Shown here: positions 596-46,057 of the stretch, piece by piece | Numbering within the stretch: the first letter of the stretch is position 1 | Layout: each line of letters opens with the position of its first letter | DNA from: Malacoraja senta | Taxonomy: Eukaryota | Assembly: GCA_038087875.1 (NCBI GenBank) | Contig: CM075988.1 | Span: 26,042,001-26,102,000 of the forward strand | Direction of reading: 5' to 3' | Length of the DNA: 60,000 nt | Made by a program: the position numbers and the translations under genes | The notes under the pieces: generated by a model | Told to the model about the DNA's origin: nothing | What the model saw: only the letters and a program-made list of their open reading frames with translations | The model's database searches: none

Positions 596-687
596 GTCTG
601 AAGCAGGGTTCCGACCCGAAACGTCACCTATTCCTTTTCTCCAGAGATGCTGCCTGATCTGCTGAGTTGCTCCAGCATTTTGTGTCT
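596..687 (+). mobile_element. Hammerhead-type short element copy
   Basis: gtctgaagcagggttccgacccgaaacgtcacc...gatgctgcctgatctgctgagttgctccagcattttgtgtct; core has one substitution. Confidence 0.75.
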
Positions 688-2565
688 AAGTATGGTGGCT
701 CTTCCGTTTCCTGTCTCAGAGTAATGGTTGCAATGTGCACTCTGCAACTCTGCAATCTCTTTTTTATTCCTGGCTGAGTTGGGCCATCTTTCCTCTTGTA
801 CGTGCTGCTCCAAGCTCTCTTGTCTTTGCTCACTGGGGAAATGTGACCAACCCTTGTGATTACTGATAACTCCAGCATTATAGGTAGCTCTGCCCAGAAA
901 GAGAAACTTTCCTCAAGCTCTCAGGAGAAGGTTAAATGCTTGAATACCCATTGTTATAAAGGAATGGGGAAAGAAAAATAGATGCTTTTGGCAAGGTAGA
1001 GTTTATTTTAATTGTGCCCTTGGAATCTGAATAGCATCAAGTTACTTTACATTGTTGCTTAAAGAATTTGCAAACTAATTCAATTGTCAAAAGGTATGCA
1101 CAACTGACTACCTTTAATGCTTGTACCTTGTGTCTGTCTCAACCAGGAACCTCCTTCAGGCTCTTTCATTGTTCGGTAGCTAGTCCGTACAGGCAGACTT
1201 TATTTGTAAGTTGTAGTTCATTGAGTCCGTGATTGTTTTCAGAGCAGTCCTATTTGTCCAATCTCCCGACTTATTTCCATATAGCCTATTCTCTCTCACG
1301 TGCCCATTAACTCCATTGTGATTCTCCCACCACCCACCTGCGTCAGCACACAAACCAACCTTCACATCTTTGGGATGTGGGAGGAAGCTGGAGCAACTGG
1401 GGAATCCCTTTCAATCACAGGAAGATTATGTCAACTCTAAATTGACAGCACCCAGGGTAGGGATTGAATATAAATTGCTGTGCCATTTATCAGCAATAGT
1501 ACTGTGCAGCCTTATGCTGAAATATGTAGAGATTCAGGGAGTGAATGCAGAGCACCCAGCTCGGAATATAACATTTAGAGATTCCTTTATTTGTCATTCA
1601 GACCTTTCGGTATAATGACAGTCAAAATGTGATGGAGAGTTCGATTTTGTAGATGGAAGTGGTACACAGGAGTAGCTGGTGGAGCCACTGTCTCACTGCA
1701 AGTCTTGATACTTTAGAGATACAGTGTGGGAATGGGCCCTTTGGCCTACCAAGTCTGCACTGTAACCTAACACTATCCTAAACAGTAGGAACAATTGACA
1801 TTTCCAGCAGCCAATTAACTTACAAAACTGCACGTCTTTGGAAAAAAAGAAAACCTGAAAACCAGTGGGGAACAAAACAGAGCACCCGGAAAAAACCCAC
1901 GCAGTCACAGGGGGGGACGTGCAGACTGCACCCATAGTCATGATCGAACACCTGTCTCTGGCGTTGTAAGGCAGCAGCTCTACCACTGTGCCGCCAAAAC
2001 TTTAAACAGTGTTCTGGTTTCAGTCCTGACCTCGGATACGGTTTGTCTTCCTGTGACCGTATGCTTTTACCCCCAATGCTTTGGATTCCTTGCGTGTCCT
2101 AAAACATGCCAGTTGGTAGGTTAATTGCCCACTGTAAAATTGCCCCTCTGTAAAATGGCTCGATGAGTGGCAGAAACTGGGGAGTTGATGGGAGCGTGTG
2201 CAGAACAGAATAGGATGCATGTAGGATTGTAAATGGGTGCTTGATGATAACCACGGACATGATGGGCTGAATGGTCTGTTTCTGGATTGTACGACTATTA
2301 TGCTTCCTGTCAGTCCATTGAAACTCCCATTGTTTATGTTCACTAGTGTGGCTGGTATAGGAAAATTTAGTTCTGTACCTCTTTGAAGTCAGGTCAGTTG
2401 TAATGTAATGAAATATCTTTCTTAGCGGGAGGATTTTGACCTCCATCAAACAATGTATCATGCATGGGCTGTGCAGCGAGATGGCTTTATTGCTATGGTA
2501 CTAACTTGAAGTATCCCACTTCCCTTGCTCAAATGCTGACAATTAACTTGGTTTCTCCTTGACAG

Positions 2566-2745: not shown

Positions 2746-3954
2746 GTACCCATGTTGCATTCCACACACAGGTCATTCGGGAAAAAGGAAGCGGGAGTTG
2801 GCTATTGATCCCGTCAAGCCTGCCTCACTATTCAATATGATCATGGCTGATCTGACCCAACATCAACTTTGTGGCTGTACTACAATGCCCTCAATTTCCT
2901 GTTTTTTTAAAACAAATTAATCTCTCTCCTGTGTTTGAGCCACGACATCCCTCTAGGATGGAGAATCTCAGTTTTAATTAATTGCCCTTGTAACCATGCC
3001 AATAGTGTTAAACTGTCCCACACTTGGAAACATCTCAGCATCCTACCTGGACATGCTCCCATTCAGTGTATCTCAGCATCCTACTTGGACATGGTCCCAA
3101 TCGGATTACCTGTTTCAGTGAGATTGTTCCTCATTCTTCTGAACTCCAAAGAACACCTGTCTAATCCATTTTGAGTTGTTCACAATAGGACAGCCTATTG
3201 CAGGAATCAGCTGAACAAATTGCTTCCGGATTTCCTTCAATGCTGTATGTCCTTTCTTGTGCTCCAGGTTTGACCTTGCCAATACTCTGTAGAGCCCTTC
3301 TCTATTTCCTACCATTAGTCCCCAGCATTAAAGGCCATTGTACCATTTGCCACGTTAATTGCTTGCTGCATCTGTGTGCTGACTCTTTTGTTTTTTCATC
3401 AACAAGAACACCATTATCCCACTGTTCTGCATCTTTGGCATTAGAGCTCCGAACATGGATCCAGTAAATCTATGTAAGGTTTTAGGTGGATTATTGGACG
3501 ATTGGAATTCCATGTTTATGGAGCTCAGCTAGAAAATAAAGTTGAGGCCCACAATCTGTTCACCCATGATCTTTGAATTGCAGTCTTGGCTGTAAGGGCT
3601 CTATAATCTATTGTTAAAGTACTATGCAGTTTTACTATTTCTGATATGATTCTTAATATGCACTTTAGGATACTTGAAACCAAAATATGTTTTTTGTTCA
3701 TGCTCCAGTTTAGACATGTCACAGGAGCAAAATTAGGCTATTCTGCCATTCGAACATGCTTCATCTCTTTTTCCCTTTCAGCCCAATTTTCCTGACTTCT
3801 CCCCGTAACCGTTTGATGCCCTTACTAATCAAGTTTCTCTTATGAATCATTTTATGTATCGGGTATGTTGCTGTTAAAGTGATAAATCAGCATGTACATT
3901 CACTTTTACTTGTTTTGGGGGTGTGCTGTGCTGTATTTGTTGTATGTGACGGCT

Positions 3955-6625
3955 GGTAGGGCGGAAGGTGACAGCCGAACCTCACCGGGACCGTCGAACC
4001 TCTCCACCTCACCGGGACCGTGGAACCTCTCCACCTCACCGAGCCTGCTGAGCCTCGCCGCCGCACCGACCATCCGCTGACCGGGACCTCCTACGCTTCA
4101 CCCGCTGACCCGGACTCCACTCCCCGCGGGCCTCCACCATCGACTCCACCCACCCTCGCCACTCCACCGCTCTCCAGCAGGCCGCAGCTGTCGCCTTACC
4201 CGAGTCCTAGGCTCAGCACCGGGCCTGCAGTCTCCACGCTGCAGACTCTGACATCACGGGTTCTGACTGTGCTGGGTCCTAGTGCTAGACCCCCTAACCC
4301 AGGCAACCTCAGTGGTTGTTCCACTGGGTCTTCCCCTTCCGTCTCAAACCTTGTGACCCCAGCTCTTCCCCACCCACACTATAGTCCTCATACCCCCTTC
4401 ATCCTTGAAAAAGGGAAGGAGTCCTCCCCCCCCCCCCCCCCAGGGATGACCCCTTCTCCCGCCTCCAACGGACCCCCTCCTCTTGGACTCCCCCTCATGG
4501 CCATCTGCTTTAGACCTTTTTATTTTAAACTGCCGGCGGGACGTCAACCGCCTCAACTTCTCCACTCCCCTTTCTCACTCTAACCTCCCCCCCCCCCCCC
4601 CCGAACGTACAGCCCTCCACTCATTCTGCAACAACCCAGACTAGGTGATCAAACCCGCTGACAAGGGAGGTGTCGTGGTAGTCTGGCGCGCTGATCTCCA
4701 CAAGGCTGAGGCCATGCGCCAACTCTCAGACACCTCCTCCTACTTATCCTTGGACCATGACCCCACAGACGCGCACCAGGCCACTATCTCTAACACTATC
4801 ACTGACTTCATCAACTCCGGCTCCCTGCCCTCCCAAGCCTCAAACCTCATCGTTCCCCAGCCCTGCACGGCCCGATTTTACCTTCTCCCCAAAATCCACA
4901 AACCAGACTGTCCTGGCAGACCCATTGTTTCTACCTGCTCGTGTCCTACCGAACTTATTTCCACATACCTCGACTCCATCCAATCCCCCCTGATCAAATC
5001 CCTCCCTACCTATGTCCAAGACACCTCACCGCTCTTCATCTACTCCAGGACTTCTGTTTTCTAGGCCCCCATTCCCTCATCTTCACCATGGACGTCCAGT
5101 CACTCTACACCTCCATCCCCCACCAGGAGGGTCTCAAATCCCTCCGTTTCTTCCTCGACCGCAGAACCAACCAATCCCCGTCTACAAATACACTCCTCCG
5201 CCTAGCGGCGCTGGTCCTTACCCTTAATAACTTTTCGTTTGACTCCTCCCATTTCCTCCAAATACAAGGCGTAGCTATGGGCACACGCATGGGCCCCAGC
5301 TATGCCTGCCTCTTTGTAGGGTATGTCGAACAATCCTTGTTCGAGGCGTACCGTGGCCCTATCCCCGAACTCTACCTCCGCTACATCGACGACTACATTG
5401 GTGCTACCTCCTGCACCCACACACAACTCACTGACCATCCATTTCACCACTAACTTCCATCCGGCACTCAAATACACCTGGACCATTTCCGACATTGCCC
5501 TACCATTTCTTGACCTCACTATCTCCATCGCAGGTGATAGACTACTGACCGACATCCACTATAAACCCACTGACTCCCATGGCTATCTGGACTACATTTC
5601 TTCCCACCCTGCTTCCTGTAAGGACTCCATCCCCTACCAATTTCTCTGCCTACGCCGCATCTGCACCCAGAATGAGGTGTTCCACACCAGGGCCTCGGAG
5701 ATGTTCTCATTCTTCAGGGACCGGGGGTTCCCCTCTTCTACTATAAATGAGGCTCTTACCAGGGTCTCATCTATACCCCGTAACTGCTCTCTCTCCCCAT
5801 CCCCCCATTCGTGACAATGGCAGAGTCTCCCTTGTCCTCACCTTCCACCCTACCAGCTGTCACATACCACAAATAATCCTCTGTCATTTTCACCACCTCC
5901 AACGTGATCCCACCACTTGCCACATCTGCCCATCTCCTCCCCTGTCTGCTCCCTCCATAATTCCCTGATCAATTTGTTCCTTCCCTTCCGAACCACCTCC
6001 TCTCCGGGCACTTTCCCTTGCAACCGCAAGAAATGCTACACTTGTCGCTTTACCTCCCCCCTTGACTCCATTGAAGGACCCAAGCAGTCTTTCCAGGTGA
6101 GGCAGAGGTTCACCTGCACCTCCTCCAACCTCATCTATTGCATCCGCTGCTCTAGATTTCAGCTGCTCTACATCGGTGAGACCAAGCGTAGGCTTGGCGA
6201 TCGTTTCGCCGAACACCTCCGCTCGGTCCGCATTAACCAACCTGTGGGCTCAGCACTTCAACTCCCCCTCCCATTCCGAATCCGACCTTTCTGTCCTGGG
6301 CCTCTTCAATGGCCAGAGTGAGGCCCACCGTAAATTGGAGGAGCAGCACCTCAGATTTCGCTTGGGCAGTTTGCACCCCAGTGGTATGAACATTGACTTC
6401 TCTAATTTCAGGTAGTCCCTACTTTCTCCTCCCCTTCCCAGCTCTCCATTAGCCCACTGGCTCCTCCTCTTCCTTTCTTCTTCCCGCCCCCCACCCCCAC
6501 ATCAGTCTGAAGATGTGGTTCGACCCGAAACGTTGCCTATTTCCTTCGCTCCATAGATGTTGCCTCACCCACTGAGTTTCTCCAGCATTTTTGTCTACTT
6601 TCGATCTGCAGTTCCTTCTTAAACA
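3955..6625 (+). mobile_element. Decayed Penelope-like retroelement (RT + GIY-YIG endonuclease, probably Neptune-type) in a KMT2A intron
   Basis: Frameshifted ORF pieces carry IKPADKGG, LLPKIHK..PGRPIVS, MDVQSLYTSIP, GVAMGTRMGPSYA, YLRYIDD, FLDL, a Cys linker CNRKKCYTC and NLIYCIRC..LYIGET.R.L..RF.EH. Stop at 6415, followed by a 3' terminal repeat region with a hammerhead motif. Confidence 0.93.
6503..6538 (+). ncRNA. Minimal type-I hammerhead ribozyme motif in the Penelope 3' terminal repeat
   Basis: CTGAAGA (6507-6513), an imperfect stem II, then GAAAC-GTT. The palindromic ACGT helix III is typical of PLE minimal hammerheads. Confidence 0.7.
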
Positions 6626-6905
6626 TAAAATAAATTTAAAGTTGTTTGCACCTAAGCAGCTACGGAATCTGATTAAAAGTTTTTTTTTAATCAGATTAAT
6701 GTATTTATTTGGTAAGAGTTTCAAAGAATAACTGGTGGGGCAATTCAGATGAGCTATGATTTATGTAATTGGGAGAATGGTTGGTCAGTTTGATACATAT
6801 TTTTGGCACTAAAATAGGAGATAATAGTTAATTATTTTTCCAGTCAGGCATCTTGATAAACGCTGAAAAGTCAATAATTTATCACCTGTTTGTTTCTTTT
6901 TGAAG

Positions 6906-9900
6906 GGAGCCCCACGCCAATGATTCATGAGAAAGTTACATTTGCTGATGCCCTGCTGTCGTCTGGGAGACGGAGCACCATTTCTAGGAGGCATAGTACA
7001 ACATCAGTATCACCCCAACATTGCAGGCACAGGATGGCTTCCCCTTCCCAAATGGGCATAACATACATCAGGTCAAGTGGTAACATCAATACATCTCCAC
7101 TGACCTCCCTCAGCGTATCTCCAGATACAGACACAGGAAACCAACCTGGTGAAACACTTCGCAAAGCGCTTCAGTCAGACAAACTTGGCATTTCAGTCCA
7201 GTCGCATACAAGCCCTTCAGGTCGACAACGAATCTGTAGTGCTGATTCCGTCCCTGTACATTACACAGGTGTTTCTCATGCACTGGGTTTACAGCCTAAC
7301 AGGACAGAACCAACATGCGTTGGGCATCACACTTCAAAAGAGCGTCCTCTAACTTTATCTGGTAACCATTCTCGAAGTGAGACGAATGCACCTGCAAGTA
7401 CGTCGGATGGTACGGTAACAACGTCAGTGTTGCCACTGATGTCTACCTCAGTTCCCACAGTAGCAGCCTTGCGTACATCACAGAAGGAAGCACGGAACAA
7501 CAGTGCATTGCTTACCAACTCTAACTCTGTGACACCACACTCCAAAGAAACTAAAACCTGTATGTTACCTTTTCACCAAAAGGATTCTAGAAGACCAAAT
7601 GAGCAACACAAGGAATCTGTGCATCCAGGAAAACCAAGCAGAGATCACATCCACAATCAAGGTACTGAGAGGATGAGGTTACAGTCTGCTGGAGTTAGCC
7701 ACACTGTGGCTGCTGGGATTGAATACTCTCGGCCAAACTGTACAGAGAAGAGACCAGTCATTAAAATGTCATCGACTGATTTTCCCAAAAACAGTAGACT
7801 ACAAACAGGGAAGCATTTTGAGGGAAGCCTATTTTCCAATTCTGCTGCAGATATAAAGGTTAATTCAAAAACATCCATCAATTCGCTACTTGAACCTGCT
7901 GAGAACACTCAAACTGTGGAAGAACCTAAACAGATATTTGGTGACAAACCTGCTGGCACTGAACATTATCTCCCTGCTAATATTGGTGATGGAATCCAAC
8001 CTCCATCTGACAAAATTAGGGCTGATATTCGCAAAAAAGAAATGCATGCTTCACAAAAGCAAGAACTTCACGGATATTTCGAACCCGATGACCTGGTTGA
8101 TGAGGATCATGACGAGAGTGTGGCTACATCCATGTCGACCAGTTCTCAGGAAGGCGAGGAGATATTGTCCTCCACAGTTGCACAACCTTCAATGACAGGA
8201 AGTCCAGAAAATGAGCAGGAAAACCTTAGGTGTCCAAAGTGCAACAAGATCTACAAACAAAGGGTGAAAAACCTGTTTCAAAAGCACGTGCTGCAGTGTG
8301 GAAGTCAGACCGCACAAGAGGATGGCGATGGGAACAAAGCTCAGGATAACGATTCAAACAAAAGGAGGTATCCTCGGCGCAGTGCCCGTGCACGCTCAAC
8401 TACCTTCTTTGGGTTGACTCCCTTTTATGGTGTGAAATCGTACGGTGAAGAAGATTTTCCATTCTATCGAGACCCCTCGGGGAAAAAACGAGGAGAACAG
8501 TCAACTCAAGGACAGGTGGATGGAGCTGATGATCCAAGTACATCATCTGATGAAGATATGGAATACTACTACAACTTCACAAGAACAGTTATCACATCTG
8601 ATAGAGAAGGAAGACTTGAGCCATGCAGTTTCTTTGATGGTGAGGAAGATTGCCGCGTACCCAGGATAAGTCAACTAGATGGTGTCGATGATGGCACAGA
8701 AAGTGATGTTAGTGTCACCACAACAGCAGGTAAAACAACACAGGTGAACAAAATAAAATCCAAAGAAAATGGAACTGAAAGCTTAGACCTTGATGGCGCC
8801 ATTAACAGCGGAGCTGTTGATGGAGAAAAGGAAAACCACGGCATCAAAACAGTTTCTGACCTGAAAGGTAGTGATTCAAAATTAGATAACTGTGTTCCAG
8901 TGAGTAGAGTTAAGTCTCAGGGCCAAGACTCCTTAGGGGAGGTTTCTCTCGCCTCATTAGACACTCCAAGACGGAGCAATTCCAACACGCCTTCTGAGAA
9001 AAATTTGCTGGATAGTTTCAACACAGACTTGTTGAAGGCTGCCAATGATTCGGACAATAACAACAGTGATGACTGTGGCAACATTCTGCCGTCTGACATC
9101 ATGGACTTTGTACTGAAGAATACACAGAGCATGCAGGCTCTAGGGGAAAGCCCAGAGTCATCATCTTCTGAACTTATAACACTGGGTGAGGGTTTAGGCC
9201 TGGTGAGTAACAGAGGAAAGGACATGGGCAGTCTGTTTGAAGTGTTTTCCCAGCCATTGCCCAGCACAGAACCTGTGGAAAATGTTGTCTCGGCCTCCAT
9301 TCCTGCCGAGGAGCCGTTTGAGCTGCCCCTGGAGTTGCCGTCTGACCTCTCCGTTTTAACAACTTGCAGCCCAACTGTTTCTAACCAAAGTCACAGCAGC
9401 CTTACTGTTATTTCCACATCCCAGCTCGCCCCATCAGAAGATCAATCGGTGTTGAATTTACCTGCTGCTGAGACGGTGGAGAAGGGGGTGACAGTGACTG
9501 GGGAGAAATCAGTGACAGTGAATGAACCCGAGGTTTCTCTGATGGGCCATCAAGTGGTGGAGCCGTCTGGAGAAAGCCACATGGCATCAGATCACTTCAT
9601 GCAAAGTCACATGGACACTGACCAACTGACGTCGCCAACCTGCACTCAGGTGGAACAAGGACTTAACCAGGATCTGACCGGGGTTGGCGCCAGCTCGCCA
9701 ATTGTCCTTCCAGTATCTGTTTCACCTTCCGTGTTACCTCAAGGGCAAAAATACGTCACAAGTCCAGATAGTCCTGGGCCTGCTCCCATCGCAGGTTCTA
9801 CAGCAGAGAGTGCAACGCCACTCTCTAAACCAGGCACCGAAAACCTCATTATTGTTAATCAACATGGACAGCCACTGTATGTTCTCCAAACACTTCCCAA

Positions 9901-11400
9901 TGGAGTTACACAAAAGATCAATCTTGCACCTTCAGTAGGAAGCACACAAGCAGTTATAGAGGCAAACAATACAGTTCTTGGGCAAAATGTTTCTATGGGA
10001 TGTAGCCTATCTTTGGCAACTGGTTTAAATGTAAGTTTGCCAGCTTCACAGTCAATATACACTTCTGCTACCATGACCAACAGCGGTGGCCTGATGACGT
10101 TATCACAACACCCTCAGTTGCATTCCTTTCCGGGACCCACTGTGTCAGCATTTCAGCCCAGCAGCACCAACTCGGCCTCCAACCTACTCATCGGGGTCCA
10201 GTCACCTCAGGATCCTCTACTCTTAAGTTCTGAGCCCAGTCAGAGGCCAGAGCTTGTCACTGCCATGACCTCTAGTCCAGGGTCCACCCAAGCTAAGAAA
10301 AGACCAATAAATAGACTGCCTTCTAAAAAGGGCAAAAAACTAGCACCTTCGTACCAGCAAACATCAAGTTCTTCTGCAGAAATTGTACCTAACTTGACTT
10401 CTATTAACTTCCCATCATCGCAGGTGTCTGGAGGGATTGCTAGCCAGTCAGGATTAGTGGATTTAGGAGCACTTACCAGCTCAGGACTGCAGCGAACAAT
10501 TCCAAACATAATCAAGCATCCCAAACCTGCCGTGATGTATTTTGAACAGGCATCTTTGGCTGTGCCTCAGCTTCAACAAACACTGGGGGCAGTAGGTTCC
10601 ACAAACATCATTGTGCCAGAAAATACTCATTTGGCAGCAGGAAATGTATCAGGATTGGGATCAGGCCAGTCGGTTTTAAATGTTGTATCTATGCATGCAG
10701 CAACAGCAGCAACCAGTACAGGAGCAGTAACTGGGCATATTCTGGGTCAAGGTTCAGTCACCCTTGCTGCTCCAATGTTGCTGGGGACAACAGACATTAC
10801 TGGCTCAATAAGTAATCTGTTAGTCAAAGCTAGTCAACAGAGCTTAGCACTTTCAGATCAGGCAGTGCCGTTGCCTGGAGCAGGAATGTTTCAACAGCTG
10901 GGACCATCACAAAGCCCCAACAGTGGACCCCTATCTCCAGCACAGAATATATGCCTGCTGCCTTCCACTGCAGCAGTCACTGTTGCACCATCTGAGCAGG
11001 AAGGGACCTATCAGCTACACCATCAGAGAACTCAATTGTTGCCAAGCAAATGCGTGACAACAACTGTCCAGTTAGATGCTGTTTGCATTTCAGATGGACA
11101 GATACCTACTACCACACTGAGCGTGTCGCCCAGTGGCATGAGCAACACCGGCATGGCCACGTCAGCTCCATTGACCTCTATGTTGTCCTCTACCATGGAC
11201 CAATCTCCTGTCAGTGGTGTGCCTGCTGCATCTCCAGGCTCTCCAAGAACCAAGCCCAGGGTAAAACGGGCATCGTCCTCTTCTGACAAACTGAGCAATA
11301 AAAAGCACAAGGTGGCACATGTCATGACTGAAATCTGTGGTGGTCATCAAGATGTCCTGGAGGCTGATTCAGCCGCTGTACCTTTGTCCTCCAGTGCAGG
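6906..11400 (+). CDS. KMT2A: KMT2A giant exon (4495 nt): Taspase1 sites CS1/CS2, transactivation domain, low-complexity region
   Basis: Lies within the 1504-aa ORF. tttttgaAG acceptor and GG|gtaagt donor. Contains KRRYPRRSARARS, QVDGADD (8513-8533), QLDGVDD (8672-8692) and DDCGNILPSDIMDFVLKNT (KIX-binding TAD, ~9068-9124). Confidence 0.98.
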
Positions 11401-11865
11401 GTAAGTAATTCAGGCCTACAACAGATAAAGATTTTATTTAAGACACCTTTTAACAGATCTGAAGAATGCCACAGTTCAATATAAATGGTGGGATTTGATG
11501 GTACTTGCGCAGAGTAAGTTTGGATAGATATCTGAATGGAACCTATCAGCCAGCAAGTGATAGGAGATCAAAGATTTGCAGTGCCAAAATTCAGAGGTGT
11601 TACATTATGCTTTGGCAGAATATTATCTCCAACCTCATTTAATGGTATTTATTTCAAATTATTTGGGAAAATATTGGACAAACAAGAAATAACTGTGTTG
11701 CAGGGCTCAGTACGGGCTTACAATAGGATTGAACGTTGAAATTTATAATCATACAAATACAATGTGATGGATTTTTGGTGACCTTAACTTAATACTGTTA
11801 ACAACCGGTAAAATAAACCTCTTGACAACACTGCACAGAGATTGTAACATTTAACGTTATTTCAG

Positions 11866-11961: not shown

Positions 11962-13378
11962 GTGAGAAGAGTTTGTTGAGGATTTTGTAATTAAAATTAC
12001 GTATATGAAAGAAATTGTTGCCATTAGCATAATGTTCAGACCAAAGGCAGGATCCACGAGTGGCCTTACTGTGGGTGAGGTAGTTACGATCTGCCCTGCT
12101 CCACCAAAAAATGTGATGAACGCAAGTTCAGTTACGACTTTCAAAGGGGAATTGGGTAAGTATTTAAAGGTAATACTTTTGCAGGCCAGTCGGGAATAGA
12201 GAAATAGCATTGACTATAGACCTGTGCAAAGAACTACTCAGAGCCATCATCTCTGCTGAAATATTTTTATATTATTACAATAATAATGACAATAATTATT
12301 TAAATCTCTTGTTGGAGAAAAGCAGACAGTGTGCGCTCAAGGATTTGTTCTTGCAGCATGCTTCAGCATGATGCCTTGTGCACAGCTAGGGAAATGGAGA
12401 AAATTGTATGGAACAGGGGTAGCAGGAAGCTGAGCTGACATTCTACAGTAAGGATGTTAATGGAATAGCATTGGTGAGAACATGTTTGTGTTTCTAAGAG
12501 CCTTCGCACTTCGGGGCAGAATAAGACATGCGTCTGCACCTTGAATTCAATAAAGATTGACTTGGGAAAAGTGGAAGTAGAAAAGATATTGATTATGTAA
12601 ATACTGCTGGCAACAATATTGCCATAACTAGTCCCATAATGCGAAGGCAGGATCTTATGTTTGAGTCTAAACTACTGCAAATAAAGCTCCAGCCTCAAGT
12701 GAAAAGATATGGTTTTAAGGACACCGGAAGGACGACTTCACTTGTTGAGTTGCAAGAGGAATAGAATATTGCGGTTATCTGAAAAATCTCCACATGATCA
12801 TATAATGGAAAGAAGATAGCTCATGAATTAGTTGAACCAAGGACACTCAAGTGAACTTGAAGCCTGAATATCAAGTCTGAAAATGGGTCCTACTTGAAAC
12901 ATCACCTATCCATTTTCTCCACAGATGCTGCCTGACCCGCTGAGTTACTCCAGCACTCTGTGTCTTGTTGATGATCTTGGTTAAGGGAGAACAAATAGCC
13001 TGGACATCAGCCCATATTAGCTTTCAAATAGTAGTGCACAGCTTTATTGTTTCTTCGAGGACAGATAGACCTCAACATAGTGTCTCATTTGAAAGATGGC
13101 ATCCATCACCGTATAATACTCCTTCGTTACCGTCAGATGCAGACACAGATTTTAGATCTCTGAAGTGAAACTTGAACCTGCATTTTCTGAGTCAGAGTAT
13201 GCTTCAAGTTGAGTTGTAACTAATTCCTAATTTAAAAATCATGTTAAATACAAATCAAATCGTTTAAAAATGACTCCCCTTTTTAAGTGTTTGATGCTTG
13301 AGTTTGTGTTAACTTAAGGAATTGCCAGCAAGCCTGTGTTGAGGTTGTTCATTAAAGCCGTGATTTTTGCCTCACCAG

Positions 13379-13467
13379 TCAAATGGAGCATGTGCCAATG
13401 CTGCAGTCCCTAGAACCGATGAACACAGCAACCTCAAATACAGAAGGACAAGATGACTTTGTTACTG
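13379..13467 (+). CDS. KMT2A: KMT2A small internal exon (poorly conserved linker)
   Basis: tttttgcctcaccAG acceptor and G|gtacgt donor. 89 nt, phase 2-1, which supplies the frame change needed to join the next exon. Confidence 0.72.
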
Positions 13468-13513
13468 GTACGTCTGAAGAATTGTTCAGAGACATGGGAA
13501 CATTGTAATGTGA

Positions 13514-13650
13514 TGGTCTGAAGAAGGGTCTCGACCTGAAACGTCACCCATTCCTTCTCTCCACAGATGCTGCCTGTCCCGCTGTGTTACTGCAGCTTTT
13601 TGTGTCTTAACATCGGTTTAAGCCAGCATCTGCAGTTCCCTCTCACACAC
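13514..13650 (+). mobile_element. Short non-autonomous Penelope-derived element with intact hammerhead core and target-site duplication
   Basis: ggt-CTGAAGA-agggtctcgacct-GAAAC-GTC-acc followed by the conserved tail. Flanked by the direct repeat TGTAATGTGA (13504-13513 and 13651-13660). Confidence 0.8.
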
Positions 13651-13844
13651 TGTAATGTGAGCACCTGGACTGACAAGGTCTGAGCTCCAGAGTCTTCAGA
13701 TTTCAGCTTAATTCATTCAGAGGGGAAATGTTGCAATAGCCAGGTGCTTCCTGTATTAGTTGGCTGCAATGCTGAAGAAGGCCATCAAGTGAAAACACGA
13801 GGCAACTTGCATTATTTCTAATAATCTTTGTTCTTTTCCCCCAG

Positions 13845-20417: not shown

Positions 20418-23400
20418 AAATTATTCAGTAGCCCTAAAATAATCTCATTCCCTGCAGAACTACAACTTTGAGGCTACAGCCTCTAATTACAAATTCTATG
20501 AAAACTTAAAAGCTGCAATAACCAACAACATCTGAATGGATTCAGTTGGTCAAATGATATGCTGCATTTGTACAATGATCCGCATTAGCTAAGTGTCTTT
20601 TGATGCTATCTGTAGAATCAATTGTTATAAGAATGCTATTTTTAAAACTAATTGCCAGTTTTTTCACATTATATCCTGATGTCATCTTTCTAGATGAAAA
20701 TTGTTATGGTTTCCTTTTGGAGGATCTTATTTTGGTTGGTTATTTTGATCTTTAGACATTTGTTAGTATATGACGAGTCTATTGAAGTTGGAATTCATTT
20801 CTTGACAATTAACAAATATTTATATCTTATCTTCGGTCTGTTCTTAAACTGACTGAAAGAGATAAAAATTACAAGATCATCAACTTTTAAAGTCCCCTCC
20901 GAAAAAAAGGAGTTACAAGAATTAAGAAAGAAACCTGCTTAAAAGATGCCAAAGTCTATCATTTTGTTTCCATTCAGAGGCTACCTGGGGTTATTGTATA
21001 ACAAGTTTCCATCCCCAACCACCTGGAAATCTCTAATTTAGGGAACACTAACTTCACAGCACCTCATATTCCACTTGGGTAGCTTACAGCCCAATGGTTT
21101 GAACATTGAATTCTCCAATTTAGGTAAATCTTTGTTTCTGCTAGCTTCTAAAACCAGGAATGAGGCTTCCCAGATCAGTCAGCAAGTAGTGTGGAACTGA
21201 AGTCATTGAGATGTAAACAGTTTCAGATACCTGCCCCCATCTGCACTGTCATGACAAATTTTAATAAAAATAATAAAACGTATTATCAGATGAAATGGCA
21301 CTGAAATACAAGGGAAAAGATTCCCTGTAAATTGAGGACTGACTGATGAATGCTACCTTAATTAATTAATTTAAAAGCAATCCTACATAGAAAATTGTGA
21401 AAGGTTTTCTTCTGATGAATATAGGAACATGCAATCATATTAAAAAGGTGGTTCGTGGGGCTAGCCGAGAGTGGGGGGGGAAATAACATTGCATTTATAA
21501 AATAAAGCAACAAAAATCCTCTTAACAGTACAGGAGTATCTGAGATGCTAAAAATACTATAGTAGTTGCAGCTCTGTGTGCGTCAATATCTCGTATGCTT
21601 CCTCCTTGCACATTTACTAAGGAAGTAGTGAACAGGATGTACTTGAATCAATTGCTGATGTAACTCACCTGCAAATCAAGAGATGTGCCCTAACAGGACC
21701 TGACCATTCAGAAATCGTGGATGCAGTACATCTCAAACATAAGCAGAATATGGCAGAAAAATTCAATAAGACAGGCCACATCATCGAGTGAGAGTTAATA
21801 TCTCAGAACAATGATCTTTCATTAGAAAACTCCTGATTTACCTCTTGATCTATCTTTAAAATGCCCTTTAAAATAATGAAATTGATAATTAAGAACAAAC
21901 AAGATGATAGTTGCCATAGTAAAGAGCAAACGGTGTTGGATTTAAGTTCTATTCAGTCAGCATGATGGACATAATTTGACAGAGTATTCTAAGGAGAATC
22001 GGGACGTGATTGACTTGGACTTCCAAACAATAAAGTCCCACAATTGAGGAATTTACTTGTCAGAACTTTGACGATGTAGGATAAAGGTCGGCGATAGCAA
22101 AATCTTTTGTGTGGTGTCAGTGAAATGGAGTACTAATGGTCTGGATTCAAAGATTCAATACAACGTGGCAACATTAGCACGTTCTCAAACCTAACGTATG
22201 CATGATTCTGAAGTACTGACTTGGGAAATATAAAATAATTTGTACCAGGTGAAATTTAATGCGATGAATATGAATATAAAATATTGTTTCTGGAAAGAGA
22301 AGATAGAAAATGTGCAAACTTTAGGAATTGTGTTAAAATTATTTTAAGTTGAAAGAAATCAGGATATGGTTTGACTGGATGCTCAACAATTCAGTAACAA
22401 TGATCAAAATAAAGGAGATTGCTGAATTATTCAATTAATACAGTAACGTACAAGTCAGATGAGATATTTCACGAGAGATGCAAGGAACTGCAGATGCTGC
22501 AATCTTAAGTAAACCACAAAGTGCTGAAGTAACTCAGCGGGTCAGGCAGCATCTGAGGAGGGAATCAATAGGGGACGTTTTTGGATTGGGACCATTCTTC
22601 AGACCCTTGTTTTGCAAACTGAATTATGCACTAGGCAGACCTCACCACGAGAGTTATGCCCAGTTCCGGTCACAACACAAAGGAGACATTGTGCACTCGA
22701 TGCAGTTCAGAGAAGAACCACAAGGCTGATCACTTGTGTTAGATGTATGAGAAAACAAAATGGGTACATTTGGACTTCTTGCCGTTGGAAAGTGAAGAAG
22801 AAGGTGATCTTATAGAGGAACATGCAACTCAGTGAATGATCTGGAATATTGTGAGAACACAGAACTAAGTTCAACAAACAAAAGACAGGTTGAGAAGTGA
22901 TGTAAGGAAACAAAATTAGATCACGTGACAATAATTTAACTAAAGTGTAAAGCCTGGAAACAAATGTTTGATTTTCCAGTTGAGGAGATACGTTTTTCTT
23001 GACAGTTGAAGCTGAACGTGCTGCATGAGCTACCTCAAGTGTAAATATTTTATATTCTTCACACAAAGCAATTAGCTTCAATGTCACTGAGCTAAGGAGA
23101 GAAAAGGTAACCATGTCCCTGAGTAGATTGTGTGTGTGTGTGTGATGAAGACTAGATTGGTATAATCTTTGCTAGAACAAAAACTGAATAGCCTGGCAAA
23201 ATTCACTGTTAACACTGAGACACGTGAATGGTATTCAGGCATGATAGCTGAGTATACCTGAGCATAAGGATGAATATTCTAGTTTGAGATAGTGCCATCA
23301 AGATATGTCATGAATCAGCTATCTTATGATTTTTCCAACACGTCATTCCTCTTAAGAATAGATGCATGTTATATGGGATTGTTCAGTTGGTTGGGTGTTA

Positions 23401-33510: not shown

Positions 33511-34389
33511 GATACTTTAAATATATTTTGTGTATTTCATGTGGGATTACTTTTTATTAAAAAGTGTTGATCCTCTAATGTTGCTAGGACCCTCACTGAA
33601 ATGACTTGCCTTCATTTGACCACACATGCAGCACTGGTAGTTTTATATCATTGTGATAGTATTTCAGCGGGATTCATATGACTAATATTTCCAGAAAAAT
33701 CACCAGATGGAAGGATTCAAATTTATTTTTATTCTGGCATGGTTTATTTTAAAGCAATTTGGACTTGAGTCAGTGATTTTGAGTAAAGCTGAGGTTGGGG
33801 CATGTTTCACTGTCGGGTGGTGCATTTGTGTGATAGGTCAGAGCTTTTGGACGCAAAATATAAAAAACAGGAGTAAGCCAAACGGGCGTTCAGATGTAGG
33901 GCATAATTCTGTACAATCTTGGCATATTTTTCCCATCTCATTCCTATGTCTTCCCATATCACTTGGCTCAAAAACCTATTGATCCCAGCCTTGAATGTGC
34001 TAAAAAACAAAGCAACCACAACCCCTGAAGGGTTTCGGCCCGAAACGTTGCCTGTTTCCTTCGCTCCATAGATGCTGCTGCACCCGCTGAGTTTCTCCAG
34101 CATTTTTGTGTACCTCTGAGATGGAGCCTTCCAGTGTTGAATCCACCAGGTAAAGAATTATCTCATCTCAGTGCTACATGGCTAACCTACTGCCTGAGTA
34201 TCCCTTGCTAAGAAGCCACTTAATCCCTTCAGCCTTTAATATTAACCATTCATTTGTTCAATGGAGAGATGTTGAGAGTTACCCAGGATTGTCCTCATTT
34301 GCATACCAATAATAACATTGCATACATTTATTCAAAGAATTTAGAAAAAATTATCTTTCTCAACACATGAAAATGAGAAAATGCCACAT

Positions 34390-34832
34390 GCAAAGTGGAG
34401 GAACAGCACTTCATATTTCGCTTAGGTAGCTGGGTAGCTTACAACCCAATGGTCTGAACATTGAATTGTTCAATCTTAGGTAAACAACCCTTCTCCTATT
34501 TCGCACCTCTCTTCCCTAAGCCCCACCTGGATGTGCACCGATTTCTCCCTTTCCCCTCGCTCCGTCCCATTCCATTCATATTCTTTCCTCTGGCTTCACA
34601 TTTCACGTATCTTCTATCCTTATCTCACACTTTTTGTCTTCACCTTTGTCCAACTATCTGCCAATTAACCCCCACACTGGTATCCACTTATCATTTGGCA
34701 GACTTTGTCCTGCCGCCACCTCTCTTCCAACTTTCTCCCCCCACTACAGTCAGTCTGAGGAAGGCTCCCAACACGATACGTCGCCTATTCATGTTCCCCA
34801 AAGATGCTGCCTGACCCACTGAGTTACTCCAA
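34390..34832 (+). mobile_element. 3' fragment of Penelope-like element (GIY-YIG C-terminus, 3' UTR, degenerate hammerhead)
   Basis: gaggaacagcacttcatatttcgcttaggtagc...gaacattgaa resembles 6338-6415 and is followed by a pyrimidine tract and cagtctgaggaagg...gatgctgcctgaccc. Similar fragments lie at ~21040-21125 and ~59745-59940. Confidence 0.8.
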
Positions 34833-35595
34833 CACATTTAATGATCCAGCCTCCACAACCCTGTAGCGCTGTGAATTCCAGGGATTCATCACCCTCTGCA
34901 AAAGTAAATTAAAATAATTCCTGTTTTAAATGATATGCCTCTTGTCACTATGTTCTCTCGTTTGATTCTTTCCAACCGGTGATAACATCTCACCATCTAC
35001 CCTGTCGTGCCTCTAAGATATGTTGTCTCAAGAAGATCACCCCTCATTCTTCTAAGCTGCAAAGAATATAGACTAATCTCTTTGAATCATAAAGTTGTGC
35101 CACACAGAAATGGCCCCTTTGCTCCATCTCAAGCGTGTCAACCTTTTTTTGCCCATCCATATTAATCCCATTTGCCAACCTTGGGACCCTTAATAGGAAA
35201 CACAACAAGGAAACCAAATGGGAATAGAATGGCAAACATTGAAGAAGTGCCCTGAATTAATCTAAATACAAAAATTAGGAGGGGGGGGGGGGGGTGTTGA
35301 CTTGTCCAGGTTGCTAGAGGATTTGGGTTACTTAATGGCTTGATTAGGGCAAATGGATTGATGATCACAGAAAGTCAAGTTTCAACATACCATCAAAGCT
35401 TTGCGGCCAACCAAAGGAGCATCTCCCTTCCTTACATCTTTGGCATTCCAAGAAGGACTCAGGACATGGGAACACACAGATCATTGCAGGTAATGCAAAC
35501 TTGAAAACATCTTGACTGATTTTCTCAATAAAGTGGAATTAATTAGTTTATGGGGATCTGTACACAATGCAAACACACAGTGCCCTCCATAATAT

Positions 35596-35795
35596 NNNNN
35601 NNNNNNNNNNNNNNNNNNNNNNNNNNNNNNNNNNNNNNNNNNNNNNNNNNNNNNNNNNNNNNNNNNNNNNNNNNNNNNNNNNNNNNNNNNNNNNNNNNNN
35701 NNNNNNNNNNNNNNNNNNNNNNNNNNNNNNNNNNNNNNNNNNNNNNNNNNNNNNNNNNNNNNNNNNNNNNNNNNNNNNNNNNNNNNNNNNNNNNN
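35596..35795. other. Assembly gap (200 N)
   Basis: Run of N; the true size is unknown. Confidence 1.
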
Positions 35796-36137
35796 TGCTC
35801 ACTAACTGGAAAACAACACTCTATCGATGGTTAACAAACCTGTTAGGATCCTAACTTATCACTGGTTACCAGATCCTATGACCATTGGTTACCAGAACCT
35901 GTGTGATGGAACCTCGTTCTACTAGTTGTCCATCATGTAGGTTATCCAAGCCTTCTCTTAGTTATTAATAGACTGCACAAGACAAGCATCTGTTGCTACT
36001 AGTTACCATGTTGTTTAGGATGAGTCTAATCCTGTACACTCTCATCAGACAGGTCTGCAGTTCCCTACTGATAAACGATGTTAGAATGAGGTCTATCCCT
36101 CTACACGATTCACCCAGGACAGTGTTACATCACCACG

Positions 36138-36565
36138 GATGCTGCCTGACCCGCTGAGTTACTCCAGCACTCTGTGAAACGTCACCTATCCATGTTCTCC
36201 ACAGATGCTGCCTGACCCGCTGAGTTACTCCAGCACTCTGTGAAACGTCACCTATCCATGTTCTCCACAGATGCTGCCTGACCCGCTGAGTTACTCCAGC
36301 ACTCTGTGAAACGTCACCTATCCATGTTCTCCAGGGATGCTGCCTGACCCGCTGAGTTACTCCAGCACTCTGTGAAACGTCACCTATCCATGTTCCGGCA
36401 GCATCTATGGAGCGAAGGAAATAGGCAACGTTTCGGCCCGAAACCCTTCCGGGTTTCGGCCCGAAACGTTGCCTATTTCCTTCAGGGTTTCGGCCCGAAA
36501 GGTTGCCAATTTCCTTCGCTCCACAGATGCTGCCTGACCCGCTGAGTTACTCCAGCACTCTGTGT
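36138..36565 (+). repeat. 66-bp tandem array (~4 units) plus fold-back composite derived from the hammerhead element
   Basis: GAAACGTCACC recurs at 36176, 36242, 36308 and 36374. It is followed by an inverted/duplicated 138-bp core at 36397-36534. Confidence 0.92.
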
Positions 36566-37040
36566 AAATGTCCAGGCTGCTCAGCACCAGAGAGTCAGAG
36601 GATTGGATTATTGCCTCCAGCAGGGGCAGGGTGGGCAAGTGATTGTTTTCCATGTTGCAAAGACTTTATGCGGAAAAATTGAAGCTTGGATTTACAATAA
36701 ATATCTTTCTGTTCTCTATTTGTAAAATAAAATCTGTTTACTTACAATTGGTATAATTTCATTGTCCAGTCTACATATATGAAGAATGGAGGGGTTATGT
36801 GGGAGATTTTATAACGAAGGGTTTCATTACCCTTTCACAGAAGTCTACGATGGCAGGATTGGAAAACTCTTATAATAACGACCACAAAACGCCTGTTTAC
36901 CGGAGAGAAACCACGATGATGAAACTAAAAGATCTCTGTAACACAGATCAAAACACCTGTAACTCAGCTGTGATATTTTGGAGCCTATTGTAGACCCCTC
37001 CAAATCAGTGCCCAAATCTCCCATGGTAACACATATTTTA

Positions 37041-37322: not shown

Positions 37323-38109
37323 AAAAATCTGAGAAATATTAGTAAGGATCAGTTTGCAATTTGCGAACATTTAGTTTTGGAACAAATATTTCTGCTATTG
37401 TACCCCCCCCCCCCCCCCCCCCCCGTGTTACTGTACCTCGACATGGACAGATAAAACACTCAGGTGTTCACCATTGAAGATGGTCCTGAGGCTGCAATAG
37501 CTCATTTGGATCCTTGCAACTAAACGGTTCAATAAGATCATGGCTCAGATTCGCATCAGCACCGTATTCCTCAAACTCCACATTAGTTTAGTTCACAGAA
37601 ACAGCGCAGAAACAGGCCCTTCAGCCCACTGAGCTCATGCTGACCAGCAAACACCCCCACACCTGTCTAACTATCTCTTAAATGTGTAGGAAGGAACAGC
37701 AGATGCTGGTTTAAACCGAAGGTAGACACAAAACGCTGGAGTAACTCAGCGGGACAGGCAGCATCTCTGGAGAGAAGGAATGGGTAACGTTTCGGGTCGA
37801 GACCCTCCTTTTGTGTCTAATTATCTTAAATGTTGTGATAGTCCCAGCCTCAACTACCTCCTCCGGCAGCCTGTTCCACACACCCACCACCCTCTGTGTG
37901 AAAAAGTTACCCCTCAGGTTCCTTTTAAATTGTTTCCCCTTCACCTTAAACCTATGTCCTCTGGTTCTCGATTCCCCCACTCTGGGCAAGAGACTCTGTG
38001 CGTCTACCCGATCTATTGCTCTCATGATCTTGTCCCCCTCTATAAGATCAAGGGAATGGTCAAGGAATAAAAACAGAGTCTGGTGGAGCATGATCAGCAG
38101 ATCGGGGGT

Positions 38110-38323: not shown

Positions 38324-39900
38324 GTAAGCTGGTGCTGAATTGTTCTTGTTTTGCTTCTGATCAGATTAACCCCAGCTTGGCTCGGTGCTGAGACCAGTGC
38401 ACAGCCTAGCTGGTCAGCTGCCTTTGTACGATGCCCACTGAATCTTGCTGGACCTGTTCCCATCTCGTCCCCCTGGGCAGGGGCAGGGGCAGGGGCAGCG
38501 GGGAATGTGTGTGCGTGGCAGCCAGCTGCCAGTAGCGGTGTTGTTGTTCCTGTATAAACACTGTGCACTTAACCATTGCAGGGTGCTTTGCCATGGGCTG
38601 ATGGCGGTTTACACCACAGGTTGTCTCTTTTGACCTCTAGCAATGTGTGTGGTCGCGGCCAGGGTAACCTAGGGGGGGGGGGGTGATGATAGGACGTGTG
38701 GAATAACAAAGGACCCACCTCTCTGAGACCCCAGGAAACGGCAGCTCAAGTTCTGCTGACTCCAGAGGCCTGGAATTACTTTGCTTTAGGGGACGGGATG
38801 AGTTTAACCCTTAGTTAGACACTAAAAGCTGGAGTAACTCAGCGGGTCAGGCAGCATCGCTGGAGAAAAGGAATATGTGACCTTTCAGGTCAAGACCATT
38901 CTTCCACCTATTGGTCTCCATAGTCAAGAAAGAACATGCTTGCCATCGAGGGAGTACAGTGACGGAGAACATGACACACTCCTGGGATGATGGGAGTGTT
39001 ATACGACAAGAGATTGGGTTGACTAGGCCAGCACTGGAGTTTAGAGGGCCAGACTGGATCTCATTGAAGGGAACAAAGTTATGAAAGAGCAGAGAATGTT
39101 TCTTCTGACAGGAAGGTGCCATTCATGGGCTACACACATAGAATTTGGGGCCAGACCTGAGGAGGAGGAGCTTCTGTATTCAGTGGATGGTGAGCCTGGG
39201 GAATTAGCGACAACAGTCTTGACCTGATCCCCTGTGCGGGGTTTATACATCCCCCCCCCCCCACACACACACACACACCCTTGACTACTGGATTTCTCCC
39301 TGTCCCATGAGTGCATGCTTGCTAGATGAATAGGCCACAGTAAATTTGCCCTGGTGCCAAGTTGTTTAGCCCTGGTGTGTAGGCGGGTGGTTGGGTTTGG
39401 GTGTGGGAGAGGGAGAGGGAGAGGAGGGTGGGGAATTGATGAGGGTAGGGCTGGTGTAAAATACAAATGAGTGCGAGGTGGATTAGCCGGCCTTCAAGTT
39501 TCAGTGCTTCATCCACCAGTGACTCTGTTATAGTGGGCAACAGTAGTCAAGGCACTGAACATATTTAGAAAGGAGGTGGATATATTTTTAGACATTAAAG
39601 ACATCAAGGCTGCAGGAAGTGAGGTTGAATATGACACTGGGATAAAGGCAGTGATCTTACTGTCGGGAGTTGCGAGCATTTAATTGTCATCTACACCAGG
39701 ACTACACCAGGACTAGAGTAATGGCATTCCTACTTGTTGCAGCTTCACAGCCACGTGAAACACAATCAGACATTAAATGATCAGTAATTCTCGGATGCAC
39801 GCCCTACCCCACTGTCCCACGACTGGGCTAGTATTCACAGTGGTGGTGGAGCAGCCTCCTGGTCCTGCACGCCCTACCCCACCGTCCCACGACTGGGCTA

Positions 39901-41233: not shown

Positions 41234-42365
41234 GTACGTCAGCACGGGATGCCACTGGGCCTTCATTCTCCACAAGCACCGGGTAGTGTTGCTGCCTCAC
41301 AACGCCACAGACCCGGGTTCGATCCTGACTACGGGTGCTGTCTGTACAGAGTTTGCACCTTCTCCCCGTGACCGCGTGGGTTTTCTCCAGGAGCTCCAGT
41401 TTCCTCTCATGCTCCAAAGACGTGCAGGTTTGTAGGTTAATTGGCTTTGGTAAAGATTGTAAATTGTCCCTGGTGTGTGTTAGTGCGCGGGGGATCGCTG
41501 GTTGGCACAGACTCTGTAAATGTATCATTTCTCCCCACTCCCCCTCCCCCCACCAGGTTGGTCTGTCTACACTTGCCCGTCTGGCCAGGGACAGCCGCGT
41601 CTGACTCCATCCAGCTCCTTCACGTCTGTGAGAGAAGACGTTGTCACGTGGGTAGTGAATGATAAGAGGTCTGAAGAAGTGTCTCAACCCCAAACATCAC
41701 CCATTCCTTTTCTCCAGAGATGCTGCCTGACCCGCTGAGTTACCCCAGCATTTAGTGTCTATCTTCAATCATAAGAGGACGTTGTTAGTTTAGTTTAGTG
41801 ATACAGCGTTAATACAGCTGGCCATCCATCACCCGTTGACACTGGTTCCATGTTATCCTGCTTTTGCATCCACTCCCTACATGTTTGGGTAATTAACCTA
41901 CAAACTGGTACGTCTTTAGGATGTGTGAGGAAACCGGAGCATCCAGAGAAACCCACGCGGTCACAGAGAGAACGTGCAAACTCCACACAGGCAGCACCCA
42001 GATTCAGGATTGAACCCATGTCTCTGGCGCTGAGAGGCAGCAGCTCCACCTTCTGCTCCACTGTGGTGATGATTAAAAAAAAAAGAAAGATAAATGAATC
42101 CTATTTTATCCTGGTAGTAAGTAGAGGAGGCTTCGGGGAATGGAAGCATTAGGGCCAGCATTGCTTTCTTGGGCCGAATGGTTTCTGTACTGTGCCTTCT
42201 CTGTGGACTATGTGGTGTGAGTCTGGAGCAATTGGTCTCAGTTTCCCCATTGACATAATGATTAGTCAGAGCCTCCAATGAAGGGTCAATGATCACTGGT
42301 GGATGGAGGTCAAGTCAGGATGAGGAGCAGCTGCGATGTCCTACATGTTGAATAATCTAAAGGGC

Positions 42366-43397: not shown

Positions 43398-44237
<840 letters not shown>

Positions 44238-45818: not shown

Positions 45819-46057
45819 GACTAGTGTGGCTGGGACATGTTGGCCGGTGTGGGCAAGTTGGGCTGAAGGGCCTGTTTCCATGCTGTATCACTCTATGACT
45901 AGTGTAGCTGGGGCATGTTGGCCAGTGTGGGCAGGTTGGGCTGAAGGGCCTGTTTCCACACTGTATCACTCTATGACTAGTGTAGCTGGGACATGTTGGC
46001 CAGTGTGGGCAGGTTGGGCTGAAGGGCCTGTTTCCACACTGTATCACTCTGTGACTC
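45819..46057 (+). repeat. 78-bp unit x3 (triplicated CR1 3' tail)
   Basis: gactagtgt recurs at 45819, 45897 and 45975. Confidence 0.93.

Follow-up and report, generated by a model that had tools for sequence, protein, structure and literature searches.

The focal insert occupies positions 13514–13650 of the window, by which we mean the whole 60-kb stretch of DNA analysed here. It lies between two plus-strand copies of a 10-nt direct repeat, TGTAATGTGA, at 13504–13513 and 13651–13660, with 137 bp between them, as a preliminary description of this DNA had stated. With one mismatch, this target-site duplication (TSD) extends to 14 nt (13500–13513 and 13647–13660), so that its left copy reaches 13500. 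The TSD scored 11, and a score of at least 9 was obtained in 5 of 395 random draws.

All parts of the insert are read on the plus strand. It begins with two letters, T and G (13514–13515), which are absent from the TSD and from the long copies of the same sequence. The extra G is the same letter that was seen genome-wide in sequencing runs, and it may be a copied 5′ cap. The relic of a minimal type I hammerhead follows (13516–13548), with the pattern given in PMC4209133: a GT/AC helix I, CUGAAGA at 13518–13524, a bulged A, helix II at 13526–13537 and GAAAC-GUC at 13538–13545, with the cut predicted after 13545. The body of the terminal repeat (13549–13606) contains most invariant columns of the alignment and is a putative protein-binding and priming region. 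The remainder (13607–13650, boundary approximate) corresponds to the optional ‘tail’ of Penelope-like elements (PLEs), which is present in six of the 19 aligned copies. To judge from its sequence, the insert represents the terminal repeat (pLTR) of Neptune-type PLEs, with its hammerhead. Such stub units are very common 90–135 base end pieces of a Penelope-type element.

State of the hammerhead

The alignment consensus corresponds to the minimal PLE hammerhead (CUGANGA, one bulged base, G10.1-C11.1, GAAA, palindromic 15.2-16.2 and NUH). The CUGAAGA, helix II, GAAAC-GUC and palindromic ACGU of the preliminary description all stood, and a bulged A is present as well. Its ggtc/gacc register of helix II did not, because it would leave a 2-nt loop, and the workable register is GGGU-CUCG-ACCU. 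Its ggt/acc helix I has also to be shortened, as only GT/AC (two pairs) is encoded by the element. A third G occurs in only five of the 19 copies, each of them short or inverted, and the third pair is due to the added G.

The full core was kept in none of the 19 copies, and in the focal copy the conserved G-C pair is replaced by G10.1·U11.1. Among 16 copies, the match to the consensus was 94.4% for the non-CpG core, 93.8% for the body and 78.6% for CpG sites. The core looks like it is in neutral decay, and the suggestion that the hammerhead is an abundant working motif is not borne out. None of the four helix II pairs was changed on both sides in the 19 copies, and the covariation score was 0.135, compared to 0.131 after shuffling. 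The covariation of helices I and II, on which the preliminary description had made its reading depend, is therefore lacking in this sample. The hammerhead fold of the focal copy had an energy of −5.1 kcal/mol against a minimum of −13.5 kcal/mol for the monomer, and −7.1 against −33.1 kcal/mol for the dimer, values from nearest-neighbour energies that ignore tertiary contacts and protein help. The PAc ribozyme of Anolis is described as having needed protein help (PMC11167929). Rfam returned no hammerhead at the gathering score in the window and none at E ≤ 10 on 13400–13800, which we take as a limit of the models and not as evidence against the motif. The built-in ribozyme is mostly decayed, and it would be a passenger that sets neither end of the unit.

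Relatives of the insert in the window

The coding PLE of the window is 5′-truncated and frameshifted (3934–6625, plus strand). It consists of a reverse transcriptase (RT), a Cys-rich linker, GIY-YIG, a pLTR with a hammerhead at 6507, and a tail. Its first 38 bp (3934–3971) are an inverted copy of 5838–5875. The profile matches had E-values of 5e-6 (RVT_1) and 3e-4 (GIY-YIG), both just under the Pfam cut-offs. There are 328 longer relatives at E ≤ 1e-20, and the broken frames of the element align along relatives of 826–955 aa. The best named RT relatives, from Mobula, Chiloscyllium, Heterodontus, Stegostoma and Hypanus, are 69–76% identical; all are elasmobranchs, so that an elasmobranch is the probable host. 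RT and GIY-YIG follow each other in one coding region, as in endonuclease-bearing (EN+) PLEs, and the optional tail and the inverted 5′ pieces (3934–3971, 49292–49325 and 59243–59443) are likewise features of EN+ PLEs. The GIY-YIG domain (frame 5908–6321) is preceded by the linker CNRKKCYTC. A Cys-rich linker between RT and EN is given for Neptune and Nematis (Craig et al. 2021, PMC8557442), and the motif here suggests membership in the Neptune clade.

The preliminary description had equated the insert with the 3′ end of a coding PLE at 3955–6625. The relationship holds, but the span is 3934–6625 and the terminal repeat shares only 71% identity with the insert over 135 bp; the two belong to different, sister subfamilies. 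A full-length PLE, with a 5′ repeat followed by an ORF, was not found in the window, where the only coding copy has no 5′ end. When an ORF start in the hammerhead body, as in PAc, was looked for by tblastn, none of 120 related proteins matched the stub loci. Downstream of the coding element, a frame of 1508 codons is open at 6878–11404 (plus strand). It has no Pfam match and only weak Atlas leads, and it is probably a large host exon. Words of this frame (query 6878–11400) were present in runs of several related organisms, with no RNA run among those listed.

With the insert as query, 38 HSPs were obtained in the 60-kb window, which merged into 21 loci at E ≤ 1e-3; 20 of 20 Markov-1 random windows gave no match. 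The preliminary description had listed about 20 related copies, and all 21 positions in its list carry a relative. Nineteen of them were found at E ≤ 1e-3, and those at 17930 and 50470 only at E 0.002 and 0.007. Nineteen copies were aligned. The alignment leaves out two old relatives, at ~17900 and ~52700, in which no core could be recognised, as well as the array at 36130, the partner on the plus strand at 59337 and the inverted 49292 tail. Contigs of viral, metagenome and prokaryote genomes were scanned for exact patterns and gave no matches, as expected for a vertebrate repeat.

Six of the 19 aligned copies are long 5′-truncated PLE ends. The copy at 48942–49325 (minus strand) belongs to the subfamily of the insert and comprises ~220 nt of upstream pLTR, the hammerhead, the tail and an inverted tail (49292–49325); it served as the reference for read mapping. 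Another long copy of this subfamily lacks the tail (52104–52252, minus). The PLE end at 34392–34840 (plus) includes the C-terminus of GIY-YIG, the 3′ UTR and a decayed hammerhead, and the long copy at 50413–50553 (plus) is old. The copy at 58318–58416 (minus) was scored as long for its short pyrimidine-rich upstream stretch, an uncertain call given that it adjoins simple sequence.

Short copies without a tail were found at 596–688 (plus, GGT start), 12874–12966 (plus, AGT start), 38813–38908 (minus) and 56541–56629 (minus), and short copies with a tail at 22476–22605 (minus, GGT start, ends approximate) and 50708–50832 (minus). The short copy at 41669–41766 (plus) has a GGT start and a 12-nt TSD with one mismatch, and the one at 34025–34115 (plus) belongs to the subfamily of the coding element and has a partly deleted core. 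At 37683–37810 (minus), a copy truncated within the core has a tail and a TSD. It sits inside a member of another interspersed repeat family (37824–38050 and 53317–53544). A second such family lies at 41276–41517, with relatives at 1771, 16519, 37058, 41891, 50102 and 54394. Two copies form a head-to-head inverted pair at 59243–59443. Pieces of the PLE coding region, or of its 3′ end, that lack a hammerhead occur at 21057–21142, 55783–55867 and 59746–59995, the second of them just upstream of a composite copy.

Three loci of the earlier list (36130, 42366 and 55356) are tandem or composite arrays. The locus at 42366–42915 (minus) starts as a short copy and continues as an array of 58-bp units. 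The locus at 55345–55701 (minus, start GAGT-CUGAAGA) is a composite of two subfamilies with an inversion, and its core recurs at 36130–36566 (plus) next to an array of 66-bp units. The ~260-bp cores of these two composites (36308–36566, plus, and 55414–55676, minus) are 98% identical and have the same internal junctions, and their flanks are no more alike than shuffled sequences. The pair is either a recopied non-coding unit or the result of gene conversion or an assembly effect. A 200-base N gap (35596–35795) lies close to the 66-bp array. The window also contains a long CA microsatellite (43573–43850) and a 78-bp tandem array (45819–46056).

The 3′ ends of the aligned copies fall at +80 to +105 (12 of 19) or +119 to +132 (6 of 19), and one copy runs into a composite. 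Loose 3′ ends in the sequencing runs were found at the reference positions 48942–48956 and 48977–48992. These two classes lie ~40 nt apart and match copies with and without the optional 30–40 bp PLE tail.

The 5′ boundary

Eleven of the 19 copies start 0–4 nt before CUGAAGA by hand-scored ends. Pyrimidine-rich pLTR DNA lies upstream of the six long copies (74–89% C+T), compared to 31–54% C+T upstream of the other 13. These 13 copies have no pLTR-like upstream DNA; 11 of them start at −4 to 0 and two inside the core. The clustering of 11 of 19 ends in one 5-nt bin has a P of about 6e-7 under a uniform 60-nt model that we chose ourselves. The boundary lies ~30 nt upstream of the ribozyme cut site, and this position rules out the cut site as the 5′ end. 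Stalling of RT at the ribozyme fold was also rejected, by reasoning, as copying stops only past the whole core.

At the boundary, the long copies read CAGT, and the initiator pattern YYANWYY is matched by four of the six. GGT and GAGT starts both recur across subfamilies. An extra G was present in 6 of 11 copies in the window (P = 0.09), or in 6 of 9 with two ambiguous copies dropped (P = 0.03); the extra G at 41671 and at 59335 is derivable from the TSD or the inverted partner. Among 11 hand-bounded copies, the TSD was significant in three (13518, 37813 and 41671), and at 13518 and 41671 it adjoins the element start within 0–2 nt. Copies with random 5′ ends, lacking a recurrent boundary or TSD, had been named beforehand as what would speak against a mobile unit; instead, a recurrent boundary was found, with significant TSDs in those three copies.

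We then considered the ends genome-wide. Three DNA runs (X1, X5 and X3) and one RNA run (X21) were mapped to 48900–49288 of the long copy at 82% likeness, a mapping in which the differences were not all counted. X21 comes from a related organism and consists of fragmented poly(A) RNA, about 6% of which was read. Matches were obtained for at least 191,790 contigs in X1, 184,587 in X5 and 227,983 in X3, and for at least 18,089 of 7.3 million reads in X21. The early claim of a very high-copy family is thus upheld. The copy number is presumably of the order of 10^5 to 10^6, a figure derived from the run contigs, whose counts are not copy numbers, together with the 21 loci per 60 kb.

Depth dropped 7- to 16-fold at the hammerhead start, a step that overstates the short class because the largest class of loose ends (position 49075, −4 relative to CUGAAGA) represents long copies of other subfamilies. 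This class has at least 1453 ends in X1, and the DNA into which its ends run is rich in pyrimidines. At −2 (49073) and −3 (49074), loose ends numbered at least 788 and 847 in X1, 1146 and 1195 in X5, and 1073 and 1070 in X3, and were among the six best supported in each of these runs. At −3, X21 had at least 833. The flanks beyond the −2 and −3 ends were long (median 143–255 nt), heterogeneous and AT-rich, with an agreement of 0.31–0.33. The first loose letter was G on the element strand in all seven rows for −2 and −3, including X21 at −3, a result that concerns the commonest letter and not its share. In X1 and X3, a 38-nt duplication joint likewise had one such letter between its two sides. 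Joints of the head-to-tail and inverted kinds converged on 49072–49075, the head-to-tail ones being rare (at least 6–12 contigs each in X1). In X21, molecule ends did not pile up and depth was equal for the two directions, which is weak evidence from fragmented poly(A) RNA, and none of the go-back joints listed came from this run; circles are poorly visible in poly(A) reads.

These data bear on plain random 5′ truncation, with the boundary merely the point at which subfamilies stop aligning. PLE insertions are described as mostly 5′-truncated with a single repeat (PMC8557442, 10.64898/2026.07.22.740005), our first query began at the boundary itself, and the largest loose-end class is the upstream pLTR of other subfamilies. 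However, the short copies have no pLTR-like upstream DNA when compared with long references, their ends cluster in one bin, and loose ends with unique flanks pile up at two positions in three organisms. Random truncation is largely refuted by these results and would be a very improbable explanation.

The boundary could instead be fixed by a splice acceptor, by a cut of the element’s own endonuclease in the cDNA, or by priming on antisense templates. All six long copies have a pyrimidine tract, which in five of them ends CAG/T. Further, an intron of Drosophila virilis Penelope is reported to end at helix I (PMC4209133), and for PLEs, resolution by EN and the use of antisense templates have been suggested (PMC8557442, PMC3846280). 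Spliced products, however, should have an upstream exon, whereas the TSD was found within 0–2 nt of the element start and the flanks were heterogeneous. By the consensus for exon ends, G is not the letter expected most often at −4. An added G is left unexplained by a nuclease cut. We consider this group of explanations improbable.

Origin of the short copies

The reading that we prefer, with slightly more confidence than doubt, is that the PLE RT starts priming in the tail of the 5′ repeat and copies to the capped start of the RNA, where it runs off, which yields solo stubs resembling strong-stop DNA. On this view, the focal insert would be a lone copy of that part of a Neptune-type PLE RNA which is repeated at both ends. 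Transcription by Pol II would start within the pLTR, on the A or the G of YCAGT, 2–3 nt before CUGAAGA, so that hammerhead, body and tail would come first in the capped RNA and return at its 3′ end. A start within the pLTR, from an internal promoter, is known for D. virilis Penelope (PMC2377424). GIY-YIG would nick AT-rich DNA, and RT would start at either of two internal sites separated by ~40 nt, giving the two 3′ classes. For the Poseidon element of Anolis, in vitro work has shown both nicking by GIY-YIG and such an internal start of RT (PMC11167929). Priming in the 3′ repeat would then produce the ordinary long copies with variable 5′ truncation, and priming in the 5′ repeat a cDNA of 90–135 nt that runs off at the RNA start, with the cap copied as one extra G. 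A 5′ G has been read as a reverse-transcribed cap in L1 and SVA (PMC2912911). The run-off cDNA would join the target, sometimes with a TSD of 10–20 nt, and a jump from the run-off 5′ end to another priming site could give the head-to-tail and inverted joints. The hammerhead would ride along and decay after insertion.

Run-off is favoured by the fixed 5′ end with its extra G, by the two 3′ classes, by the converging joints and by subfamilies that include both short and long copies. Several observations were counted against it, among them the weaker G signal in the window, the few significant TSDs and the lack of a full-length element in the window. Further, the YAG/T at the boundary also resembles a splice acceptor; the composite that occurs twice with unrelated flanks suggests recopying of non-coding units; and X21 has no place where many molecules begin, so no transcription start was seen.

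The preliminary description had proposed a Penelope-dependent, SINE- or retrozyme-like element that moves on its own. Its PLE-derived, non-coding nature without a Pol III head was confirmed. Scanned with the A-box and B-box patterns, none of the 19 copies had both boxes; one B-box match and six scattered A-box matches with one mismatch were found, along with no Rfam match and no tRNA genes in the window. A SINE head of the Pol III type was therefore rejected.

A self-propagating non-autonomous family would differ from run-off in that the stub, with an internal Pol II promoter, protein-binding and priming sites, is itself recopied in trans by the PLE protein, SINE-like but without a Pol III head. 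The defined ends with TSDs and a 3′ end common with an autonomous partner are those of a non-autonomous PLE, and the ~260-bp composite at two loci with unrelated flanks would also fit. Precedents are the internal promoter of Penelope (PMC2377424), the pLTR cis sequences that suffice for mobilisation in trans in Adineta (PMC3846280), and putative non-autonomous PLEs in Chlamydomonas (PMC8557442). On the other hand, the short copies form no clade of their own: short and long copies are intermixed, with 6 label changes compared to a shuffled mean of 5.1 and 500 of 500 shuffles as low, a comparison of low power with one of 16 inner branches starred. The GGT and GAGT starts across subfamilies point to a mechanism and not to one master copy. 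The composite pair is 19 kb apart and near an assembly gap, where gene conversion or misassembly is possible. Ordinary PLE transcripts can give the same product. The proposal of a separate family moving alone was not sustained, and we regard it as rather unlikely. We also find it doubtful that the 90–135 bp unit is a complete Neptune PLE mini-replicon, with its own capped start, promoter, protein-binding and RT start sites, recopied in trans to several hundred thousand copies.

The retrozyme part of the proposal fared worse. For a non-LTR retrozyme, units are freed by dimeric hammerhead cleavage, circularised and reinserted. The units here are PLE-derived, hammerhead-bearing and non-coding, like those in 10.64898/2026.07.22.740005, and the rare head-to-tail joints of X1 point the same way. 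The 58-bp array at 42366–42881 (minus; 8.9 copies, 97% matches) has units that begin at the predicted hammerhead cut site, which is the only hint of a self-cleaved template; the array reflects a single founding event, and microhomology could also explain it. However, the start of the units lies ~30 nt upstream of where the ribozyme would cut, and they contain the ribozyme whole, so that it does not determine their ends. Most copies are dispersed monomers, and no tandem series was found whose units all have a complete hammerhead; the arrays at 36133 and 42366 have no CUGAAGA in their repeated units. With no intact core among the 19 copies, a hammerhead fold far above the minimum energy as monomer and dimer, and neither an end pile-up nor listed go-back joints in X21, we give this origin hardly any credence. 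The ribozyme-centred story lacks support, while the fixed start has support and is worth following.

Comparison with known systems

Minimal PLE hammerheads are mostly single motifs that have been ascribed to truncated PLEs, with thousands per genome (Cervera and de la Peña 2014, PMC4209133). They share with our copies a type I core, one base between 9 and 10.1, the G10.1-C11.1 consensus, the palindromic 15.2-16.2 and the lack of a loop III, and differ in that helix I has two encoded pairs here (as in D. virilis) and helix II four. The available text of that study gives about 4,000–9,000 motifs for the coelacanth and Xenopus, and mentions no cartilaginous fish, fixed 5′ end or extra G. The Neptune EN+ PLEs of PMC8557442 resemble the elements in the window in their RT, CX2-5CxxC-type linker, C-terminal GIY-YIG, 5′ truncation, inverted 5′ pieces, 30–40 bp tail and pLTR hammerhead.

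Animal non-LTR retrozymes (Cervera 2020, PMC7229834; 10.64898/2026.07.22.740005) are similar in being non-coding, hammerhead-bearing and pLTR-related; monomers occur, and a chondrichthyan genome is among those that contain retrozymes. They are, however, tandem repeats with a complete hammerhead per unit that self-cleave into circles, whereas we observed dispersed monomers with ends unrelated to the cut site. A pLTR origin of such retrozymes has been argued from a sample with one chondrichthyan genome (Li, Clavereau and Pollet 2026, 10.64898/2026.07.22.740005). Solo minimal PLE hammerheads are thus already known, and the fixed start plus G is what we did not find in print: the open-access literature, Dfam and Repbase aside, gave no description of fixed-start solo pLTRs with an extra G or of this elasmobranch family, which may already be catalogued.

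Retroviral strong-stop DNA is a short cDNA that starts at an internal primer site and stops where the RNA has its capped 5′ end (R region). The proposed stubs would be likewise short, internally primed and copied up to the cap, with an extra 5′ G as in L1 and SVA (PMC2912911). This is an analogy only, as there is no tRNA primer or integrase here, and the short cDNA would itself be inserted by target priming.

If run-off is correct, solo copies that stop at one base plus G map the RNA start from DNA alone, and the hammerhead lies at the extreme 5′ end of the PLE transcript. A mini-replicon would, if real, be a Pol II-transcribed equivalent of SINEs for Penelope elements, and its run-off-and-jump cycle would also explain the regeneration of pseudo-LTRs, for which the text of PMC2377424 offers no obvious mechanism beyond tandem formation. 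As a warning, counts of ‘genomic hammerheads’ in sharks and rays would mostly reflect decayed passengers.

The closest parallel at the 3′ end is the Anolis Poseidon element, whose tail Frangieh et al. (2024, PMC11167929) relate to a pair of internal start sites of the RT. PAc has a hammerhead followed, ~100 nt on, by the two sites that define its tail, its ribozyme was dispensable for insertion in vitro, and the same text reports no RNA-seq ends at the cut site. The coding element described here differs by its Neptune/Nematis Cys-rich linker, and the main text on PAc describes no solo run-off copies with a fixed 5′ end. In the window, tail ends are often ACA followed by T, and two TSDs begin with ACATT (13500–13504, 37678–37684, 49325–49330 and 6623–6627; very few cases). 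This echoes the preference of the Anolis enzyme for cleavage at ATT (PMC11167929). The body motif CAGATGCTG (approximately 13569–13577) can pair with CAGCAT (~+80) or, alternatively, with the tail sequence CAGCATCTG (approximately 13625–13633). The two resulting hairpins stop a little ahead of the two classes of 3′ ends and may determine where RT starts.
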